64,000 nucleotides of DNA from Planctomycetota bacterium. Lineage in GTDB: Bacteria; Planctomycetota; UBA1135; UBA2386. The stretch lies in contig OZ245006.1 of NCBI GenBank assembly GCA_965223545.1, positions 1,824,001-1,888,000 of the forward strand, in the 5' to 3' direction. Shown here one piece after another: positions 45,841-55,024 of the stretch (position 1 is its first letter; every line of letters begins with the position of its first letter). Below the pieces are notes generated by a model. That model ran no database searches. It had not been told where the DNA came from and saw only the letters and a list, made by a program, of their open reading frames with translations. The position numbers and the translations under genes are program-made.

Positions 45841-46905
45841 TCACATGAAGCGCCGCATGCGGCGCTTCCCCTTGCCGCGCCGGGCGACACCCCGCTCGGC
45901 ATCGCGCTCGCGCGCCCGCGCGTCGAGGTGGTTGCGGATCTCGGCCACCAGATCGTCGGGGCTCTGGAAGCGGATCTCCTTGTCCTTCGCCATCATCTTC
46001 TCGATGAAGTAGTGCGTCTGGGGACTGAGCTGCAGCGCGCGGATCGCGTCACCGGACAACGCCTCGCGCACCTGCTTGGCCATGATCTCCTCGCCCGACT
46101 CGCCGGCGAACGGCAACGAGCCGGTGACCAAGTGATAGAGCGTGGCACCGAGCGAGTAGATATCGGCGCGCACGTCGAGCTCGCGCTGCCCCTTGGCTTG
46201 CTCGGGCGAGATGTAGGCCACCGTACCCGCGGTGGTCGCCGCTTCGTCCGCCGCGCCGGCATCGGTGGTCGCGACCGCGAAGCCGAGGTCGATGAGCACC
46301 GCACGCCCATCGCCGGTCAGCATGATGTTCCCCGGCTTGACGTCCCGGTGCACCAGACCACGGCCCTGCAGATAGCCCAGCGCGGCACCGATCTGCATCA
46401 CCACGTCCAGCGCTAGGTCCTCGTCCAAGCGGCGGTCATCGCCGACCTCGTCCTGCAGACAGCGGCCGTCGATGCACTCCATGGCGCAGAAGAAGACGTC
46501 TCCCTCGCGCGCCACCCGCAATCCCTTGACGATGTGCGGACAGTCGAGCTCGAGCAACAGCTTGGACTCGCGCACGAACGACTCGAGTGCTGTCCGATCG
46601 GCGGCGAGCTGCGACTTGAGTACTTTCAGCGCAACATTGTTTCCGCTCTTTCGGTCGCGCGCACGGAACACGCGCGCGGTACCGCCTTCGCCGAGCAGGT
46701 CGCCGAGTTCGTATCGCGACAGCTCGGGGCGCGTGCCGGCATCGGTACGCATCCAGGTCGCCCATTGCTCGTCGCTGACCGTGCCACCCCGCACCAAGAA
46801 CTCACGCGGAGTCCCCGACGCCACCGCCTTGGCGGCGATGTCCCGCGGCAGCAGACCACGGTGCACCAGCAGCGCCAGGAGCTTGGTTTCGGCCGGATCA
46901 GTCAT
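45841..46905 (-). CDS. Cytoplasmic Hanks-type Ser/Thr protein kinase
   Basis: LGEGGTARV, VALK, HRDVKPGN, DLGFA, GTVAYISPEQ, DIYSLG; no TM; basic C-terminal tail. Confidence 0.93.
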   Translation of the reverse strand: MTDPAETKLLALLVHRGLLPRDIAAKAVASGTPREFLVRGGTVSDEQWATWMRTDAGTRPELSRYELGDLLGEGGTARVFRARDRKSGNNVALKVLKSQLAADRTALESFVRESKLLLELDCPHIVKGLRVAREGDVFFCAMECIDGRCLQDEVGDDRRLDEDLALDVVMQIGAALGYLQGRGLVHRDVKPGNIMLTGDGRAVLIDLGFAVATTDAGAADEAATTAGTVAYISPEQAKGQRELDVRADIYSLGATLYHLVTGSLPFAGESGEEIMAKQVREALSGDAIRALQLSPQTHYFIEKMMAKDKEIRFQSPDDLVAEIRNHLDARARERDAERGVARRGKGKRRMRRFM

Positions 46906-47003
46906 CGTCTCAGACCCCGCTCGCACACTGCCTTGCAGCGAGCGTCAAGTCCAGCTGCAGGCCGGCCGAAGTAGAAACCAAGGCGCGAAACTGGGGGGGA
47001 ACG

Positions 47004-48338
47004 GTGAAGCAAGCGGACAACCACGTCGTGGTGAAGTACTTCGACCTGATCGACGAGTTCATCAAGATCCGCAGCTGCTCGGAAGACGTGCTCAGTGAGC
47101 TGGCCCGCTCGCCGGTGCACAACAAGGCCAGCTACCGCCGCCGTATTGTCGAGGTCTGCGTCCCGGACTTCGAGACGGAAATCCTCCACGCGCTGGAGAA
47201 GCTCGACGAGGAGTACGACGCCGAGATCGTCGAGGAGCTGCTCTACCAGATCTGCATCGACGTCAACCCGGCCCTGGAGATCCACCAGGTCAACCTACCG
47301 ACCAATCCGGATAGCGAGGCCGGGGACGTCCTGCCACGGGAAGGCCAGCGCGACCGGCAGCAGCTGTTTCGCAAGGTGATGGGTCTGGAGCGGACGCTGC
47401 GCGGACAGATCGTCGGCCAGGACGAGGCGATCTCGACCTTCGTGCGCGCGATCAAGAAGGCGGCGGTCGGCCTCAAGCCACCGACGACTCCAGTGGGCAC
47501 GTTCTTCTTGGTCGGGCGCACCGGCACCGGCAAGACCGAGCTCGCCAAGGCAATCGCGCGCACGCTCTACGACGATCCGGGCCGGATGGTGCGCATCGAC
47601 TGCTCGGAGTACGCCCTGCCGCACGAGTACGCCAAGCTGATCGGTTCGCCGCCGGGCTACATCGGTCACAGCGAGGGCGGCTTCCTCACCGAGGCAGTGC
47701 GCAAGAAGAAGAACTGCGTCGTGTTGTTCGACGAGATCGAGAAGGCGCACCCCAAGGTGCACAATCTGCTGCTGCAGCTGCTCGACGAGGGCATCCTCAC
47801 CGACAGCAAAGGGCAAGTGGTGTCCTTCGCCAAGACGTTGGTCATCCTGACCAGCAACCTGGGCATCGAGAAGATCGACGCGATCCGCTCGCGAATGGGC
47901 TTCCGCCGCCCGGAAGACGCCGGCCTCGCCGGCACCGACCTGAAGACCGCGACCCTGGAAGCCTTCAAGGAGGCCTTCCGCCCCGAGTTCGTCAACCGCA
48001 TCGACGAGCTCGTCGTGTTCAACCCGCTCGATCTCAAGGTGTGCGCGCGCATCGCCCAACGCATGCTGCGCGACGTCGCCGAGCTGCTGTCGCGGCACGG
48101 CATCAAAGTCGACTTCTCCCCCGGCGTGCGTCACGCGTTGTCGCGCGAGGGTTTCTCGGAGGAGTACGGCGCGCGCGAGCTGCGGCGGCTGGTCAAGCGG
48201 CGCATCGAAGACCCACTGACCGAGTTGATCCTGTCGGACTCGCTGGGCGTGGGTGCCCGGCTGTCGGTGCGCATCAAGAGCGGCACGCCGCAGATCGCCG
48301 TGGTCGAGAACGGCCGCCCGGCGATGCAGTCGGTCTAA
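47004..48338 (+). CDS. Single-AAA+ ClpA/ClpC D2-type ATPase with unrecognised N-terminal domain
   Basis: GQDEAI, GRTGTGKT, LIGSPPGYIG, LFDEIEKAH, LTSNLG..MGF, FRPEFVNRID, YGARELRR; only about 120 aa precede the AAA module. Confidence 0.88.
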   Translation: MKQADNHVVVKYFDLIDEFIKIRSCSEDVLSELARSPVHNKASYRRRIVEVCVPDFETEILHALEKLDEEYDAEIVEELLYQICIDVNPALEIHQVNLPTNPDSEAGDVLPREGQRDRQQLFRKVMGLERTLRGQIVGQDEAISTFVRAIKKAAVGLKPPTTPVGTFFLVGRTGTGKTELAKAIARTLYDDPGRMVRIDCSEYALPHEYAKLIGSPPGYIGHSEGGFLTEAVRKKKNCVVLFDEIEKAHPKVHNLLLQLLDEGILTDSKGQVVSFAKTLVILTSNLGIEKIDAIRSRMGFRRPEDAGLAGTDLKTATLEAFKEAFRPEFVNRIDELVVFNPLDLKVCARIAQRMLRDVAELLSRHGIKVDFSPGVRHALSREGFSEEYGARELRRLVKRRIEDPLTELILSDSLGVGARLSVRIKSGTPQIAVVENGRPAMQSV

Positions 48339-48429
48339 ACAGCGATCGCAACGCGGAGTCGGGCACCTCGCCCGAATGCGGTGGCGCCCACCTATCGCGC
48401 GCGCAGGCCGGCGGTAGGCTGTAGCGGCG

Positions 48430-48978
48430 ATGAACCTCGCCGTCCTCGTCTCCGGCGCCGCGGCCGCCGCGGTGGCTGCGCTGTGCCTGGCACCGCAGCA
48501 GGACCCCGTCACGCCGACCTCATCCGACCCTGCCGTCGGCACACCGCGCGTCGCGACGATCACCGCGAACCCCGGTGGCGGTCAAACCGACGCCGCCCCC
48601 CGCCTACCACCGGAGCTGCACCTCCCGCTGCCGCCGCATGCACGCATCGCGCTGCGCCTGCCGCGAGGGTTGCGTTCCGGCCTGCGCTGTCCGGACGGCA
48701 GCTTTTTGCCCCTGCTCAACGGAGTGCCGCACGCCAGCCCGATCCATCGGTCGCCGCACGACGGCCCGCTGCCGCCAGTCGTGGCCAGGCGGACCGACGC
48801 CGATGGCGATGACTGGTACGAGCACGCGGACGGCTCGCTGACCACGACGCGCTGGGTCGACGTCGAAGTCGGCGGCGTGGTGCGCCCAGACGTCGTCACC
48901 AGCCACCACGCGCCGGTTGACGCGCACGCGCGACCGCTGCCCTCCTCCAAAATCCCGGCGCCGACCACCCAACGATGA
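48430..48978 (+). CDS. Hypothetical exported Pro-rich protein
   Basis: Hydrophobic N-terminus; ATGA overlap with the next gene. Confidence 0.55.
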   Translation: MNLAVLVSGAAAAAVAALCLAPQQDPVTPTSSDPAVGTPRVATITANPGGGQTDAAPRLPPELHLPLPPHARIALRLPRGLRSGLRCPDGSFLPLLNGVPHASPIHRSPHDGPLPPVVARRTDADGDDWYEHADGSLTTTRWVDVEVGGVVRPDVVTSHHAPVDAHARPLPSSKIPAPTTQR

Positions 48979-50156
48979 TCCACACCCGACCGGTCATGGC
49001 CGCCCTGCTGCTCGCGGGCACCGTCTTCGCTCAGTCGACCTACGACGAGGTCGTGCGCAGCAACGAACCCTGGGTGGTCTTCGCCTCCGCCACCAGCACC
49101 GCCACCGGGCTTCCCTACAACTACGACGCGGTCAACCCTCCGGAGTACTCGGCCGGGACGCTGGGCAGTCCGGTCGGTGTACCGGCGAACACCTGGAGCT
49201 GGCGGATCATCCCGGGCTCTGCGAACTTCCGCGCCGGCGTCCGGCGCGTCGCTGGCTTCCGCCACTCACAGGTCATGTCGGGCGAGACCCAGCCGGCCAA
49301 CTACGGCGGCGCTTACGAAGCCGAGACGGTTCTGGCCGGCGTCGTCGCCCGACCGTCGGCGCCCGCCGGGGCCCGCAACCCGGACTGGAGCAAAGTGCTG
49401 GTGCGGATCCCCGCGCTGGCCGCGGCGGGAGCCCCCTCGCAGCTGTACCGCGTGACCCGCACGCTGGCGTCGCCGATCGCGGTGTCCAGCAGCCCGGGGG
49501 CGAGCGGCACCATCGACCTGGCGCTCGCCGTCAAGTTCAACGGGGGCGAGAGCAAGTGGATCGACGGAGCGCAGGGATTCGCCGCCACTTGGTGGGACGG
49601 CCCGACGCCATGGAACACGAGCGGCTTCTACTACCCGGGTACGAACACCACGACGTTCAACACGGACCCGCGCTTCGTGCTCTACCTGAACTACCTCGAG
49701 GCGGAGCCGGCGATCGCCCTGCACTCGGACTGGGGTCACTGGCAGAGCACCGGCGCGGGGGGCTTGCCCGGGCCGATCCTCGGCCACTCGATCGGCACCT
49801 ACTTCGGCAATCTGGCGAGCACCGCCGGCAACCTCGGCGTCAGCGTGCGCGCCGGCAACTACCCCAACGGCATCGCGCTGGTGCTGCTCAACTTCGGCCC
49901 CTACTTCGCCGGCTCGTTCCAGTTCTTCGGTCAAACCCTCGAGCTCAACCCCACCGATCCGGTGCTGACGCTGTTGTTGGGTCTACCGGGCATCGGCCTG
50001 CTGCCACTCGACGGCGCCGGCAACACCGACGGTGCCAAGATCCCGATTCCGCAGAACGCCGCCTGGCTCGGCACGACGCTGGGCTTCGAGGCCTTCATCG
50101 CCGACCGGACCGGCCAGGTGCGGGCCAGCACGGGCTCGGCTTTCGTTCGCAACTGA
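48975..50156 (+). CDS. Secreted hypothetical protein with conserved C-terminal domain
   Basis: Signal peptide ending TVFAQ; strong codon bias; C-terminus IPIPQNAAWLGTTLGFEAFIAD...ASTG. Confidence 0.7.
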   Translation: MIHTRPVMAALLLAGTVFAQSTYDEVVRSNEPWVVFASATSTATGLPYNYDAVNPPEYSAGTLGSPVGVPANTWSWRIIPGSANFRAGVRRVAGFRHSQVMSGETQPANYGGAYEAETVLAGVVARPSAPAGARNPDWSKVLVRIPALAAAGAPSQLYRVTRTLASPIAVSSSPGASGTIDLALAVKFNGGESKWIDGAQGFAATWWDGPTPWNTSGFYYPGTNTTTFNTDPRFVLYLNYLEAEPAIALHSDWGHWQSTGAGGLPGPILGHSIGTYFGNLASTAGNLGVSVRAGNYPNGIALVLLNFGPYFAGSFQFFGQTLELNPTDPVLTLLLGLPGIGLLPLDGAGNTDGAKIPIPQNAAWLGTTLGFEAFIADRTGQVRASTGSAFVRN

Positions 50157-50166
50157 TGGTGTCACG

Positions 50167-51288
50167 ATGCTGATGCGCACAACGCTCACGGCGACCGCCC
50201 TGGCCGCGACCATGGTCGCGCAAGGGCCGGCGTTCCAATGCAGCTCCAGGGTGCACTACTCCGCACTTTGGCAGCACCTCCACGCGCGCTACGACGCCGA
50301 CGGCGATGGCCGCATCAGCCGCGACGAGTACCCGCGCGGCGATGTGCGGTTCGCCAACTTCGACCGCAACGGGGACGGCGTGCTGAACGTCACCGACTTC
50401 CCGGCCGACCGGCAGTTCAACGCGTTCAGCCCATCGCTGGCGCGCATGGCGGACGCCGACGGGGACAATGCGGTCTCGCGGGGCGAGTGGTCGACGTTCT
50501 GCGACGCGATCGACGGCGACAGCGACGGCGAACCCGACCGGACCGGCCTGGCGGCGACGCTGCGCGGTTGGCCGCTGGACAGCGACAAGGACTGGAACCT
50601 CTTCCTGCTGGCGTTCGACCAGGACGAGAATGGCCGCTTCACCGCAGAGGATCTCGGCCACCTCTTCCACGACCTGGACGCCGACGGCGACGGCACCGTG
50701 GCCGAGGCCGAGATGCAACGGCACCGGCGGACGATGCAGCGGCCCGATGCACCGCTGCCGGCGGTTGGTGAGCCGGCGCCCGACTTCGAGCTGCCGATCG
50801 CCGGCGATCCGGCAAACACGGTCTCCCTGTCGAGCTTCGAGGGCGACCGCCCGGTCGCCTTGCTCTTCGGCTCCTACACTTGACCCCCGTTCCGCGAGTC
50901 AGCCGGTCGGCTGGCGCAGCTGCACGAGACCTACGGCGATCGCGTCGCGTTCTTGCTGGTCTACATTCGCGAAGCGCATGCCATCGACAGCGAGCTGCCG
51001 ATGGAGTTCGGCATGATCGAGGACCCGGTGACCGACCGCGGGCGGCACGCGCTGGCCGAACGCTGCACGACCGAACTCGGTCTGACCATGCCAGCGCTGG
51101 TCGACGGCATCGACGACGCGGTCAACCGCCGCTGGCACGCCTGGCCCGAGCGGCTCTACCTGATCAACGCAGACGGAACGGTCGCCTACGCCGGCGGGCC
51201 GGGTCCGTTCGAGTTCCACCCCGACGAGCTGGAGACCGCGATCCGCGCCGTGTTGGACCCGGAAGGCGCACCGAGCACCGGCGGCTGA
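50167..51288 (+). CDS. Secreted EF-hand / iodothyronine-deiodinase-like selenoprotein (Sec at TGA 50881-50883)
   Basis: ORFs 50032-50883 and 50953-51288 share one frame; readthrough gives VALLFGSYT-U-PPFR...VYIREAH...AWPERLYLI...GGPGP. Six EF-hand-like loops and a signal peptide precede it; SECIS-like hairpin downstream. Confidence 0.88.
50898..50915 (+). promoter_or_regulatory. Bacterial SECIS-like hairpin
   Basis: Stem GUCAGCC/GGCUGGC (7 bp including one U-G pair) with apical loop GGUC starting 22 nt after the UGA. Confidence 0.7.
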
Positions 51289-51296
51289 TCCCGGCC

Positions 51297-53513
51297 CTAC
51301 CAGCCGAGATCGAGCCGCAGGGCGTGGCTGAGATCCCAGCGCGCCGCGGCGCCCGGGTCTTGGATCGCGGCCTGCGCGAAGACCGAAACCCCGGCCAACG
51401 CCGGCAGACTCGGCAACGGCAACGGAAACGAAGCCCCGCCCCCGGTTCCGGTCCCCGACAGAAAGCTCGCCGCCAGAGGCAGAACCGCGAGCTGGCCGCA
51501 CGCGAAGGTGGCCCGATTGCCGACCGCGCTGAGCAACAGCACCGCCGGTTGCCGGATCAGGCCGCTGCGCACCTCGAGCTCGTAGCTGCGACTCCCCAAC
51601 ACGGGCTCGCCGAAGCTGAGCAGAGCGGCGCTGCAACCGGCGGGCACGTAGCTCGCCGCGGCTGGCCGGTCCAGGAGCGAGAACAGGTCGGCCGTCGGCC
51701 GCGCCGCGTCGGGGCCGCCGCCGTAGACCAGGACTTGGCCGCGCCGAGCGTCGTGCACCATGGCGTGTCCCCCGCGCGGCGTCGCCAGCGGCGCCGCCCG
51801 CGTCCACGAAGCGCCGCCGAACTCCCAGGCGTCGGCGAGAGCGACGCCACCCGCGCGCCCTCCGACCAGCAGAACACGCCCGGTGCCGGGGTCGAACGCC
51901 ATCGCGTGGCCACTGCGCGCGGGCGGACTGCCGGCGACCGCGATTCCCCGCCACGCGACTCCATCCCACTCGAGAGTATCCGCGCGTTCGAACCCGGCGG
52001 CATCGATGCCACCGAACAGAACAACCCGCGCGCGGGACGGATCATACGCGACCGCATGTCCCCGGCGCGCTGGCATGCTCGCCGGCGCGACGGACCAAGC
52101 CGTGCCGTCGTACGACCAGGTGTCGCCCAACACCCCGCCCGAGCTCTCGCCTCCGGCCAGCAAGACACGGCCGCGGGCGGCGTCGTAGACCATCGCCGCG
52201 CCATGCCGCGCGGCGGGCGCGGACGCGGCACTCTGCTGCCACGCCACTCCGTCCCACTCCCAGGTGTCGGCCAGCGCCGCCCCGCTGGGGAGCCGACCGC
52301 CGAAGAGCACGGCGCGACCGCGCCGTGCGTCGAATGCCAGCGCACTGCCCCGTCGCGCCGACGGGCCGGACGGTGTCGCACGCCACGCGGCACCGTTCCA
52401 CAGCCATGCGACCGCCTGCTCGGGCCGCCCGTTGCCGCCGCCCACCAGCAGGGTCTCACCGCGCTTGGCATCGAAAAGCATGGCGTGCCCGTCGCGAACG
52501 TTGGGCGTGAAATCGCGTGGCGCGAAGCCGCTGCCGTCGCCCACCCAAGTGTGCGCGGCATGCACCGGCTGCACCTTGTGCACCGTGCTCGTGCCGCCAT
52601 GTATCACGACGCGCCGCAGATCGGCGTCGTAGAAGCCAACGTGGTCGACCAACGCGAAGCCCGTGCCGATTGCCGGTTGCCAAGTGGCGCCGTCCCATTC
52701 CCAAGCATCGGCGAGACCCGTCGAGCCCGCGCGGCCGCCGACCATCAGCGTGCGCCCCCGACCCGGGTCATGGACCAGAACGTGGCCACAGCGGCCGGCC
52801 GGCGCCCCCTGCCCCATCGCCTGCCACTGCTGCCCATCGAACTCCCACGTGTCCGCGAAGAACGAGGTGCTCTGACCGGTCGCGCAACCGCCGAACAGTA
52901 CGAGTCGCCCGCGGGCTCGATCGAGCACCATCGCTGCATCGGTCCTCGGCGGCGGAGCAACGGGCGTCGTCAATCGGGCCCACTGCGCACCGTCCCACAA
53001 CCACGTGTCCCCGAGCTCTCCCAGCCAACCGCGACCGCCGAACAGCAACACGCCCCTGCCGAGCGGATCGGCGGCCATCGCATGCCCCGCGCGCGACGGC
53101 GGCCGCACGCCCGGACCGTGGACGCGCCACGCGCCATCGGTGCATTCCCACGTATCGTCGAGCAAGAGCTGTCCGTCACTGCCGCCGAACACGACAACAC
53201 TCCTGCGGGCCGCGTCCCAGGCCGCGCCCGCACCAACGCGCGGCGGCGGTTCCACGAACGCGCCCGGCCCCGAGGCACGCCATGCGTCGCCGTTCCACTC
53301 CACGGCTCCGGCGACGGCGGAAGCAAAGCCGGGCGCCGCCCCACCGACCATGACACCTCGGCCTCTCGCGACGTCGAACGCCGCACACGCTCCGGCGCGC
53401 AGCACTGGCTGTTGCAGGGCCTTCCACCGCGCCGACTGACCGGCGGCAAGACCGGCGAGGACGCACACACCGACCGCGACCAACACGCTCTGCTCTCGCT
53501 TCGGTTCACTCAT
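51297..53513 (-). CDS. Secreted Kelch-repeat beta-propeller protein with conserved C-terminal domain
   Basis: About 12 repeats of P.R.GHAM.FD..RGRV.LFGG....DTWEWDG..W; signal peptide ending LAAGQ. Confidence 0.88.
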   Translation of the reverse strand: MSEPKREQSVLVAVGVCVLAGLAAGQSARWKALQQPVLRAGACAAFDVARGRGVMVGGAAPGFASAVAGAVEWNGDAWRASGPGAFVEPPPRVGAGAAWDAARRSVVVFGGSDGQLLLDDTWECTDGAWRVHGPGVRPPSRAGHAMAADPLGRGVLLFGGRGWLGELGDTWLWDGAQWARLTTPVAPPPRTDAAMVLDRARGRLVLFGGCATGQSTSFFADTWEFDGQQWQAMGQGAPAGRCGHVLVHDPGRGRTLMVGGRAGSTGLADAWEWDGATWQPAIGTGFALVDHVGFYDADLRRVVIHGGTSTVHKVQPVHAAHTWVGDGSGFAPRDFTPNVRDGHAMLFDAKRGETLLVGGGNGRPEQAVAWLWNGAAWRATPSGPSARRGSALAFDARRGRAVLFGGRLPSGAALADTWEWDGVAWQQSAASAPAARHGAAMVYDAARGRVLLAGGESSGGVLGDTWSYDGTAWSVAPASMPARRGHAVAYDPSRARVVLFGGIDAAGFERADTLEWDGVAWRGIAVAGSPPARSGHAMAFDPGTGRVLLVGGRAGGVALADAWEFGGASWTRAAPLATPRGGHAMVHDARRGQVLVYGGGPDAARPTADLFSLLDRPAAASYVPAGCSAALLSFGEPVLGSRSYELEVRSGLIRQPAVLLLSAVGNRATFACGQLAVLPLAASFLSGTGTGGGASFPLPLPSLPALAGVSVFAQAAIQDPGAAARWDLSHALRLDLGW

Positions 53514-53605
53514 ATCGCTTCTCCAAGTTTCTCCCGCGGAGCGATGCGCCCATGGTATCCGATCACTGCCACCGCCGCTCACCCGACGCCGACGATGCGG
53601 TCCGA

Positions 53606-55024
53606 TCACGGCGAGGCGCCGATGACGATGCCGCGGAAGCTGCCGACTTCGAGCGGCGTCAGCGCGTAGCGGGCGGTCAGGTGCGCGTGCAGCGCCGGCG
53701 CGCGCGCGGCGACGCTGTCCATCGCGCGCCGCGTCATGATCACCGCGAAGCCGCGCCGGGTCAGCTCGCGATGCATCGCATCACAGGCCGACGGCAGCCC
53801 AGCGACCGATGTCACGCCACTGTACAGCTCCTCGACGCGCATCACCGGCGCACCGGCATCGGCGCGCAGGATCGGATCGATCTCCGCCCGACCGCTGCCC
53901 AGGAGAATGGCATTGTGCGCGGCGGTCGCCCGCAGCGCGTCGCCGGCGTCGATCGGATCGACGAGCCGGTCGTGCGCCGAGACCAGCAGCACCCCGATGC
54001 CGAGCCCGGCACACGCGGCTGCCGCGACCACCGGTGGCCGCCACCAACGCACGGCCAGCACGGCCCCCGGGAACACCACGGGCATCAGGTAGCCGCCGCG
54101 CTCGTCTTGCACGCCGCGCAGCAACACGTGCGACAGCACGAGGTAGCCCGCCATCAGCACGGCGTACGCCGCCCAGGGCCGCCGCGGCCCGCGCAACAGG
54201 CCGTACAGGCACAGCCCCGAGAGCGGTGCCAGCGGAACCAACCCCTCGTTCCACAGCGTTCGCGGCAGCGACGCAAACGAGCCCACGGTGACGGCGTAGG
54301 ACCACAGCGTGCCGGCACCGAGCGCGTCCGTCTCGGGCCAACCGAGACCGATCCGCACCAGGACCGCGGTGGCCCCATGCGCCAAGACCGTGACCGCGAC
54401 GTATCGCGCGACGCGCGCGGCGCGTTCGTCCCCGTTGCCGGCGGCGAGCACCGCGACCGGCACGATGATCGACAGCAAGTGCCCGCTGGCGTGCACCCCG
54501 GCACCGACCGCCGTCGCGACTCCCAGCGCGGCGGCGCGCGACGCGGATGGCCGCACCCGAAGTCGACAACCGAGCCACCACGCCACCGCGACGCAGCCGA
54601 CGAACACGCCGGGGATCTCGATGATCGTGGCGAAGAACACCACGCTCGGAGTCCAACCGCACAGCAATGCCGCAGCCGCTGCAGAACGCCGCTCCAACCC
54701 CAGGCAACCCGCCGCGCGGTGCGAGGCCGCCACCGACAGCGCCGCGCCCAGCGCACTCACCGCCTGCATCGACCGAAACGTCGACACGCCCAGCGGCTCC
54801 AGCCACCCAGCGACCACGCGATTGAGGGGGACGTAGAGCGCATGCGCGCCGCCCGGATCCGCGCCGGTGGCCACCGCCCGCAGGAACCGATACGCATCCG
54901 AGGTGAAGACCGAGCCGAAGAACACGTCTTGCGCGAGCGCCCAATAGCTGCCCAAAGCGATCGCGACCAAGACCGCGGTATCGCGAAGCGGCAAGCCACT
55001 CCGGTTCGCGTCGGCCGCGGTCAC
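53606..55024 (-). CDS. Polytopic membrane protein, possible GT-C glycosyltransferase (ArnT/DUF2723-like)
   Basis: GTGA overlap with the ECF sigma stop; about 10 TM helices; SDAYRF..HALYVPL loop, FFATIIE, ERGGYL. Confidence 0.55.
   Translation of the reverse strand: MTAADANRSGLPLRDTAVLVAIALGSYWALAQDVFFGSVFTSDAYRFLRAVATGADPGGAHALYVPLNRVVAGWLEPLGVSTFRSMQAVSALGAALSVAASHRAAGCLGLERRSAAAAALLCGWTPSVVFFATIIEIPGVFVGCVAVAWWLGCRLRVRPSASRAAALGVATAVGAGVHASGHLLSIIVPVAVLAAGNGDERAARVARYVAVTVLAHGATAVLVRIGLGWPETDALGAGTLWSYAVTVGSFASLPRTLWNEGLVPLAPLSGLCLYGLLRGPRRPWAAYAVLMAGYLVLSHVLLRGVQDERGGYLMPVVFPGAVLAVRWWRPPVVAAAACAGLGIGVLLVSAHDRLVDPIDAGDALRATAAHNAILLGSGRAEIDPILRADAGAPVMRVEELYSGVTSVAGLPSACDAMHRELTRRGFAVIMTRRAMDSVAARAPALHAHLTARYALTPLEVGSFRGIVIGASP

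Follow-up and report, generated by a model that had tools for sequence, protein, structure and literature searches.

Within the window, the 64,000-nucleotide stretch of planctomycete DNA analysed here, gene calling leaves two apparent genes on either side of a TGA codon: the protein database entry for the gene product has 238 aa, as many as the frame encodes before the TGA, and a TTG-started ORF of 111 aa lies downstream. The locus raises the question of whether these are two genes or one selenoprotein gene, and of what reaction such a protein would carry out. The two apparent genes are almost certainly one frame interrupted by a UGA that is read as selenocysteine (Sec):

50167..51288, + strand: full coding sequence of 373 aa with Sec239, an EF-hand plus deiodinase-like domain protein (PF00837, AlphaFold2 model)
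50881..50883, + strand: in-frame TGA, predicted selenocysteine 239 (Sec genes, homologues, read contigs)

One reading frame across an in-frame TGA

Translation through the TGA at 50881-50883 gave a single frame of 373 codons at 50167-51288. A sequence-only reading of this DNA had placed the TGA at the Sec position of the deiodinase motif and had described a 134-codon continuation with the motifs VYIREAH, PERLYLI, and GGPGP; the coordinates, the frame, the FGSYT-TGA-PPF motif, and all three downstream motifs were recovered, the 134 codons remaining open until the TGA at 51286-51288. The length of the continuation was dropped as evidence for Sec since such lengths are common by chance here (134 open codons correspond to 16% of stop-to-stop intervals in this 70% GC genome). 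The Pfam family T4_deiodinase (PF00837) matched residues 201-358, across the TGA, with 74.5 bits against a gathering cut-off of 27, and the EF-hand pair PF13499 matched in the same frame with 44.3 bits against a cut-off of 30. NF038285 (deiodinase_rel, 347 positions) was the best NCBIfam match, with an E value of 2.7e-63 over two stretches; its 214.5 bits fell under the curated cut-off of 250 bits, as did four deiodinase-domain homologues scanned with the same model (133-193 bits). The anticipated splitting of the gene by gene callers was evident from the 238-aa entry and from the other database matches, of which 31 of 119 stop exactly at the xGSxT motif; public sets cut the family at the UGA, and the gene call is corrected here.

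An assembly error at the TGA is unlikely because short-read contigs from two runs spanned 50100-51350 with 0 differences and 0 gaps, contigs that may be the source of the assembly of this DNA and count against long-read error. A real stop or an error at this codon, with the EF-hand protein and a fragment as separate products, would be consistent with the downstream 111-aa ORF and with a hairpin that alone is not unusually stable, but it would break a single folded domain apart at the catalytic residue and is at odds with the read contigs, with the occurrence of TGA at every family site, and with the covariation of the SECIS stem described below; this alternative is considered extremely improbable.

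Predicted selenocysteine insertion in the genome and the family

The Sec machinery presupposed by the sequence-only reading was found in the genome (8.1 Mb, 69.7% GC, 91% complete), with selA, selB, selD, and tRNA-Sec (selC) each above cut-off and with an in-frame TGA in selD itself; 57 of the 61 family genomes contained selA. At least 27 of the 61 sampled family genomes held a Sec form. Thirty-one family loci were examined, three of which (L050-L052) had no match to the motif pattern and were excluded from the counts, and the 28 motif-bearing loci, from 27 genomes, all displayed TGA at the site and never TAA or TAG. In other taxa, 15 motif sites in 14 loci comprised 13 TGA and two TGC codons, excluding L066-L069, which had no motif-pattern match, and with L071-L132 lying outside the analysis. 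Alignment of 97 homologues set the in-frame UGA against Cys in 53 proteins, the remaining catalytic-site residues being U (41), W (2), and S (1), and the two Trp-site homologues (P0017 and P0025) may derive from TGA translated as Trp by the gene caller. Natural Cys forms were identified among full-length EF-deiodinase proteins (P0011, P0013, P0014, and P0016), as was one natural Ser form. A paralogue in the same genome (C1:6712913-6713950) has the same EF-hand/deiodinase architecture with TGA at the same site; it carries a nearly identical hairpin, keeps the Dio3-type Arg (GGRGP), and lacks the Cys25 discussed below.

Downstream of the TGA lies a candidate insertion element:

50898..50915, + strand: bacterial SECIS-type hairpin with a 7-bp stem and a GGUC loop at 50905-50908 (comparative analysis; consensus of PMC13188914)

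The 7-bp GGUC hairpin proposed from the sequence was confirmed, its loop lying 21 nt past the TGA (that is, beginning at the 22nd nucleotide). The bacterial SECIS consensus, as given in PMC13188914, comprises a loop of 3-9 nt, a stem of 4-16 bp, a spacing of 16-37 nt, G in the first two loop positions, and an energy of -7.5 kcal/mol or lower, and the hairpin agreed with the proposed bacterial geometry on all of these (4-nt loop, 7 bp, 21 nt, and -13 kcal/mol for a 41-nt stretch). Single-sequence folding energy was rejected as SECIS evidence, being no better than that of shuffled sequences (z +0.18 to +1.52). A stem of at least 7 bp with a loop starting in GGT followed 11 of 2523 ORF-ending TGAs at this spacing (0.44%), and the same strict criterion held after 78 of 16210 Cys codons (0.48%). 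The case against chance is made by comparison across loci and not by the hairpin alone. The loop Gly codon was GGT in 27 of 28 loci, whereas GGT makes up 11% of the Gly codons in the rest of these genes, and the stem was 93.4% paired across the family with two-sided changes in five of its seven pairs, including a closing pair that was C-G in 21 loci and U-A in five (an Ala codon change coupled to Arg-to-Gln). The covariation score was reached by 0 of 500 shuffles and slid registers paired at 17-56%; the aligned sequences are kin, which keeps the shuffle counts from being probabilities, and the window sequence itself supplied the structure. SelB-dependent insertion of Sec at residue 239 is predicted with little room for doubt.

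A genome scan returned 56 candidates with TGA plus hairpin, and the organism appears rich in selenoproteins because a Pfam domain spans the TGA in 16 of 20 candidates picked by eye, nearly all from redox families. The TGA-spanning domains of these loci (L133-L152, on C1) were TlpA-like (three), MsrA (two), Prx-like (three), and Trx-like (four), together with formate dehydrogenase-type, AhpD, DUF3179, and HMA domains. Neither L137 nor L143, which look like paralogues and have both TGA and hairpin, matched a Pfam family, and the FG-GAP protein L136 contains W-U-C; all three are possible representatives of less familiar Sec families. At L135 the TGA is a true stop. In a Betaproteobacteria record (L062), two deiodinase-like Sec genes lie in tandem; both lack EF-hands, and both have a hairpin with a 5-nt loop.

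Proteins of this kind have precedents. Zhang et al. described bacterial deiodinase-like selenoproteins in 2005 and expected a function unlike that of animal deiodinases (PMC1088965); these proteins were counted again in 2008 (PMC2398784), and an EF-hand-deiodinase fusion was reported from ocean metagenomes in 2021, with mention of an extra conserved Cys of unclear function (PMC9402790, Fig. 2B), such that the fusion itself is not new. A 2026 review calls the bacterial deiodinase-like family largely uncharacterised (PMC13188914), planctomycete selenoproteins are reported in a paper whose main text does not contain the word “deiodinase” (PMC4807772), and a literature search of mostly openly readable papers returned, within those texts, no tested activity for a bacterial deiodinase-like protein. 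As far as these reports describe them, the PF00837 bacterial selenoproteins and the EF fusion share with the present protein the Sec-UGA site, a bacterial SECIS, Cys homologues, N-terminal EF-hands, and an extra conserved Cys. In contrast to the published fusion, the protein described here has six EF loops with a Cys25 arm, and it reads UPPF where the table of the 2026 review gives UxxC as the family motif. Added by this study are the helix Cys300, which may or may not be the extra Cys of the published fusion, the clade-specific Cys25, the loss of three thyronine-contacting residues, and the absence of peroxiredoxin and GPx signatures.

Deiodinase-like domain, Cys300, and candidate chemistry

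The catalytic half of the protein comprises the following features:

50749..51261, + strand: deiodinase-like domain with a thioredoxin/peroxiredoxin fold, about residues 195-365 (matched best by mouse Dio3, 4TR3/4TR4, and Dio2, 9H48)
50962..50979, + strand: YIREAH motif, whose Tyr266, Glu269, and His271 belong, like Ser236 and Thr238, to the deiodinase proton-relay network
51064..51066, + strand: Cys300 in helix 290-303, candidate resolving cysteine (homologue alignment, helix order in the model)

A full-length AlphaFold2 model based on a 51-row alignment had a pLDDT of 92.1 and a pTM of 0.88, the latter implying a fixed arrangement of the two domains. Mouse Dio3 was the top match of both the structural search (Foldseek E 5.7e-12; VIA Z 19.7, rmsd 3.4, 176 aligned) and the profile search (E 1.9e-34, with the first non-deiodinase at E 2.8e-10), and the peroxiredoxins AhpE and Bcp followed closely in structure (Z 18.5 and 18.1). 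Shared with animal deiodinases (Dio3 4TR3/4TR4 and Dio2 9H48) were the fold, the S-x-T-U-P-P-F motif, the Tyr/Glu/His network, and the omega-loop insertion. Unlike them, the present protein has no transmembrane anchor (best 19-residue hydropathy 0.99), has added EF-hands, carries its SECIS inside the coding region, and lacks the second His, the Trp, and the Arg/Lys, with helix Cys300 in place of the proximal and distal Cys (no Cys at 309-310). The deiodinase proton-relay network is described as six residues, Ser, Thr, Tyr, Glu, His, and His (PMC11592359). Five of the six were kept, with Thr238, Tyr266, Glu269, and His271 present in 97 of 97 homologues and Ser236 in 96, and the thyronine-handling residues were lost, namely Dio2 His182 (the second His of the network, Pro287 here), Dio3 Arg275 (Pro345), and Dio3 Trp207 (Glu276); the Arg/Lys clamp position is Pro345 here but Arg in 16 of 28 family loci.

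The Pro of the peroxiredoxin Pxxx(T/S)xxC motif was absent (LLFGSYTU) and Glu328 stood opposite the peroxiredoxin Arg of Bcp in a global alignment, both residues being called essential to peroxiredoxins (PMC4749874). The GPx tetrad motifs PCNQF and WNF (bioRxiv 10.1101/2025.11.24.690144) were likewise absent, and the profile alignment to BtuE was not significant. Between the reductive dehalogenase and the peroxidase suggested by the sequence-only reading, the active-site residues, as read from the alignments, lean to deiodinase-type chemistry. Partners of the catalytic domain vary: some relatives have two EF loops, some have none, and others have PDZ, TPR, or hydrolase domains. Among Sec forms, the fusion partner is a beta-lactamase-family serine hydrolase domain in L039, a weakly S9-like hydrolase region in L047, and a PDZ domain in L049; many Cys forms carry TPR repeats.

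A Cys within one column of Cys300 was present in 91 of 97 homologues. Helix 290-303 of the model matches peroxiredoxin alpha3 by secondary-structure order, and a global profile alignment to E. coli Bcp set Cys300 against the RFAEKE segment, presumably helix alpha3, an agreement at the level of the helix. In Tpx and some PrxQ the resolving Cys lies in helix alpha3 (PMC4749874). Sequence proof that Cys300 is the Tpx/BtuE resolving Cys was rejected: the spacing fits by eye, but none of the top three registers of an ungapped profile scan aligned Cys300 with Tpx Cys95 or BtuE Cys83, and hhalign recovered neither. Because the scan gave no such alignment, we infer the resolving role, and Cys300 likely resolves the oxidised Sec, judging from conservation and the model. 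Four Sec/Cys proteins lacked Cys300, three of them with a Cys two residues before the catalytic site; L044 and L048, both without Cys300, have C-T-U and Y-C-R-E-A-H instead, possibly an alternative resolving arrangement.

The preferred reading, adopted tentatively and given somewhat short of an even chance, is an exported Sec reductase that takes halogen from a non-thyronine substrate and is reset via Cys300, with calcium in a structural role. The selenium of this deiodinase-fold enzyme would abstract the halogen from a small halogenated compound that is not thyroid hormone. The oxidised Sec239 would then probably form an intramolecular Se-S bond with Cys300, by analogy with alpha3 atypical 2-Cys peroxidases, and this bond might be re-reduced through a DsbD-type relay and exported thioredoxin-like proteins of the genome, which encodes a DsbD-family gene as a possible electron source and several Sec-bearing thioredoxin-like candidates. 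The substrate is the least certain step; a halogen-bearing electrophile, either a halo-aromatic or an N-halo compound, is suggested at close to an even chance because the Ser/Thr/Tyr/Glu/His network is invariant while peroxidase signatures are missing. Calcium would fill five loops more or less permanently, the EF-hands serving as a calcium-stabilised scaffold whose N-terminal arm would brace the substrate loop. The loss of the three thyronine-handling residues and of the proximal and distal Cys, the structural closeness of peroxiredoxins, the lack of a halogen-related gene among 48 neighbouring ORFs scanned, and the 2005 expectation of a function unlike that of animal deiodinases count against the halogen reading.

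The same Sec239-Cys300 pair could instead serve an extracytoplasmic selenoperoxidase that reduces H2O2, organic peroxides, or hypohalous acids, with Cys300 resolving as in Tpx, alpha3-type PrxQ, and thioredoxin-dependent GPx. These enzymes share with the protein the peroxiredoxin-like topology and, by secondary-structure order, a second conserved Cys in the corresponding helix, which follows the second core strand (PMC4749874); Prx structures at Z 16-18.5, an AhpC-TSA Pfam match over 1-123 of 124 positions, a gene context as scattered as is usual for protective enzymes that act alone, and the many other Sec redox proteins of the genome point in the same direction. Nevertheless, the PxxxTxxC Pro, the active-site Arg, and the GPx motifs are missing and the register of the Cys was not recovered, the deiodinase-specific loop and network are retained, and the genome already has Sec-bearing Prx candidates elsewhere (L147 and L151); a peroxidase is rated somewhat less likely than the preferred reading. 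Envelope proteins could also be the substrates of a thiol-disulfide or sulfenic-acid reductase whose EF-hand, TPR, and PDZ modules choose the clients. Such an enzyme would accord with ResA/DsbE-like structural matches at Z about 17.7 and with the fusions to protein-binding modules; the absence of UxxC (UPPF here) and the invariant deiodinase insertion and network, which point to a small-molecule pocket, make it distinctly improbable.

EF-hand domain, Cys25 arm, and gene neighbourhood

The N-terminal half and the genes upstream comprise:

50167..50220, + strand: likely signal peptide, residues 1-18, cleavage set by eye before Gln19 (hydropathy)
50239..50241, + strand: Cys25 in the N-terminal arm, C-x-x-R-V/L, conserved in the closest clade (alignment)
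50293..50712, + strand: six EF-hand-type loops, residues 43-54, 66-77, 96-107, 116-127, 151-162, and 171-182 (Pfam, loop pattern)
48430..48978 and 48975..50156, + strand: two upstream genes of no family, adjacent but not a conserved part (profile searches, synteny)

The signal peptide claimed from the sequence was retained as a plausible N-terminal stretch, but it is weakly hydrophobic (best 9-residue mean 1.74) compared to at least 2.1 in 25 of 26 read-through relatives, for which the start codons were picked by eye; export, whether to the periplasm or to the cell surface, is predicted as very likely. All six DxDxDG-type loops reported earlier were present, although five are credible because loop 4 (DGDSDGEPDRTG, with Pro at position 8 and Gly at 12) is degenerate against the 12-residue EF-loop pattern. 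The EF domain modelled on its own had a pLDDT of 92.0, and a fold search with it gave matches at EF-pair level only (best Z 7.9, none at 8 or above), an absence of whole-domain matches that does not indicate a new fold. Lanmodulin EF loops have Pro at loop position 2; none of the six loops had it, and the lanmodulin model NF053806 scored 19 bits versus a cut-off of 135. Cys25 was found in 13 of 51 alignment rows; six of these rows include the complete catalytic domain, and a quick tree groups all six in a single clade (SH-aLRT 93). In the full model, residues 26 and 280 each form a lone beta-bridge, and the one at 26 is missing from the EF-only model, which suggests that the Cys25 arm touches the substrate loop.

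Extracytoplasmic EF-hands are probably calcium-saturated. The predicted fixed packing of the two domains would suit the proposed Ca2+-responsive behaviour, but the number of EF loops in TGA-bearing relatives varies from 0 to 6; calcium regulation is at most weakly supported, and a mainly structural role of calcium is the best guess. Under a sensor-responder arrangement, calcium or another metal at the EF-hands would move the Cys25 arm on the substrate loop and switch the Sec site. The confident two-domain packing, the inferred beta-bridge from residue 26 to loop residue 280, and the conservation of Cys25 would fit this, and a precedent exists in Chlamydomonas calredoxin, which needs Ca2+ for thioredoxin activity and whose structure 5E37 was among the matches (PMC4911631). 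Calredoxin shares the fusion of EF-hands to a thioredoxin-fold domain; it differs, as described in that report, in having four EF-hands in another arrangement, thioredoxin activity, and a chloroplast location, and the EF domain does not superpose on it as a whole (Z 5.5, rmsd 14.6). The variable EF count, the occurrence of the catalytic domain with PDZ, TPR, serine-hydrolase, or no partner, and the usually saturating calcium outside the cytoplasm (general knowledge) also speak against a switch, which is thought quite unlikely. A further proposal, also improbable, is a calcium-gated, oxygen-tolerant envelope selenium dehalogenase in which a six-EF-hand domain of unusual arrangement would dock the Cys25 arm on the substrate loop, relay electrons along Sec239-Cys300-Cys25, and, with neither cobalamin nor flavin, strip natural organohalogens of iodine or bromine, as the ancestral chemistry of thyroid-hormone deiodinases. 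Because it is soluble, lacks a membrane anchor, and has natural Cys counterparts, a deiodinase-fold protein of this type offers a handle on the role of bacterial deiodinases and on the origin of animal deiodinase chemistry, with Cys300 and Cys25 as specific mutation targets.

The three-gene operon inferred from the sequence held as to tight spacing (a 4-bp overlap followed by a 10-bp gap) but was rejected as a functional unit, as the upstream pair is not conserved beside the deiodinase gene over 20 loci and recurs elsewhere without it. Pfam and NCBIfam searches found no family for either upstream gene, and a search of 46800-51500 found no sigma70-type promoter, which says little for this taxon. 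The pair, probably exported, is duplicated at C1:2755491-2757030 without a deiodinase gene, the second copy being followed by a 460-aa ORF that resembles an IS110-type transposase. It clustered with no other locus among 20 relative and paralogue loci plus the window; the product of the nearer gene resembles Planctomycetota protein clusters, and its homologues in relatives lie on other contigs or, in three of the genomes with the closest orthologues (G019, G038, and G051), were not found with this query. No specific neighbour recurred across the 20 loci, and the gene neighbourhood was set aside as a substrate clue since none emerged from the 48 ORFs scanned among 140 neighbouring ORFs listed, which included no halogen-related gene, one redoxin beside an orthologue (L171), and otherwise unrelated families. 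In the window, a Clp-type ATPase with a single AAA_2 module is encoded at 47004-48338, and a homologue adjoins the EF-deiodinase gene convergently in G020 (L177), the only case among the 20 loci. A Kelch beta-propeller protein of a greatly expanded family in this genome is encoded on the minus strand at 51297-53609, its gene ending 8 bp from the selenoprotein stop.
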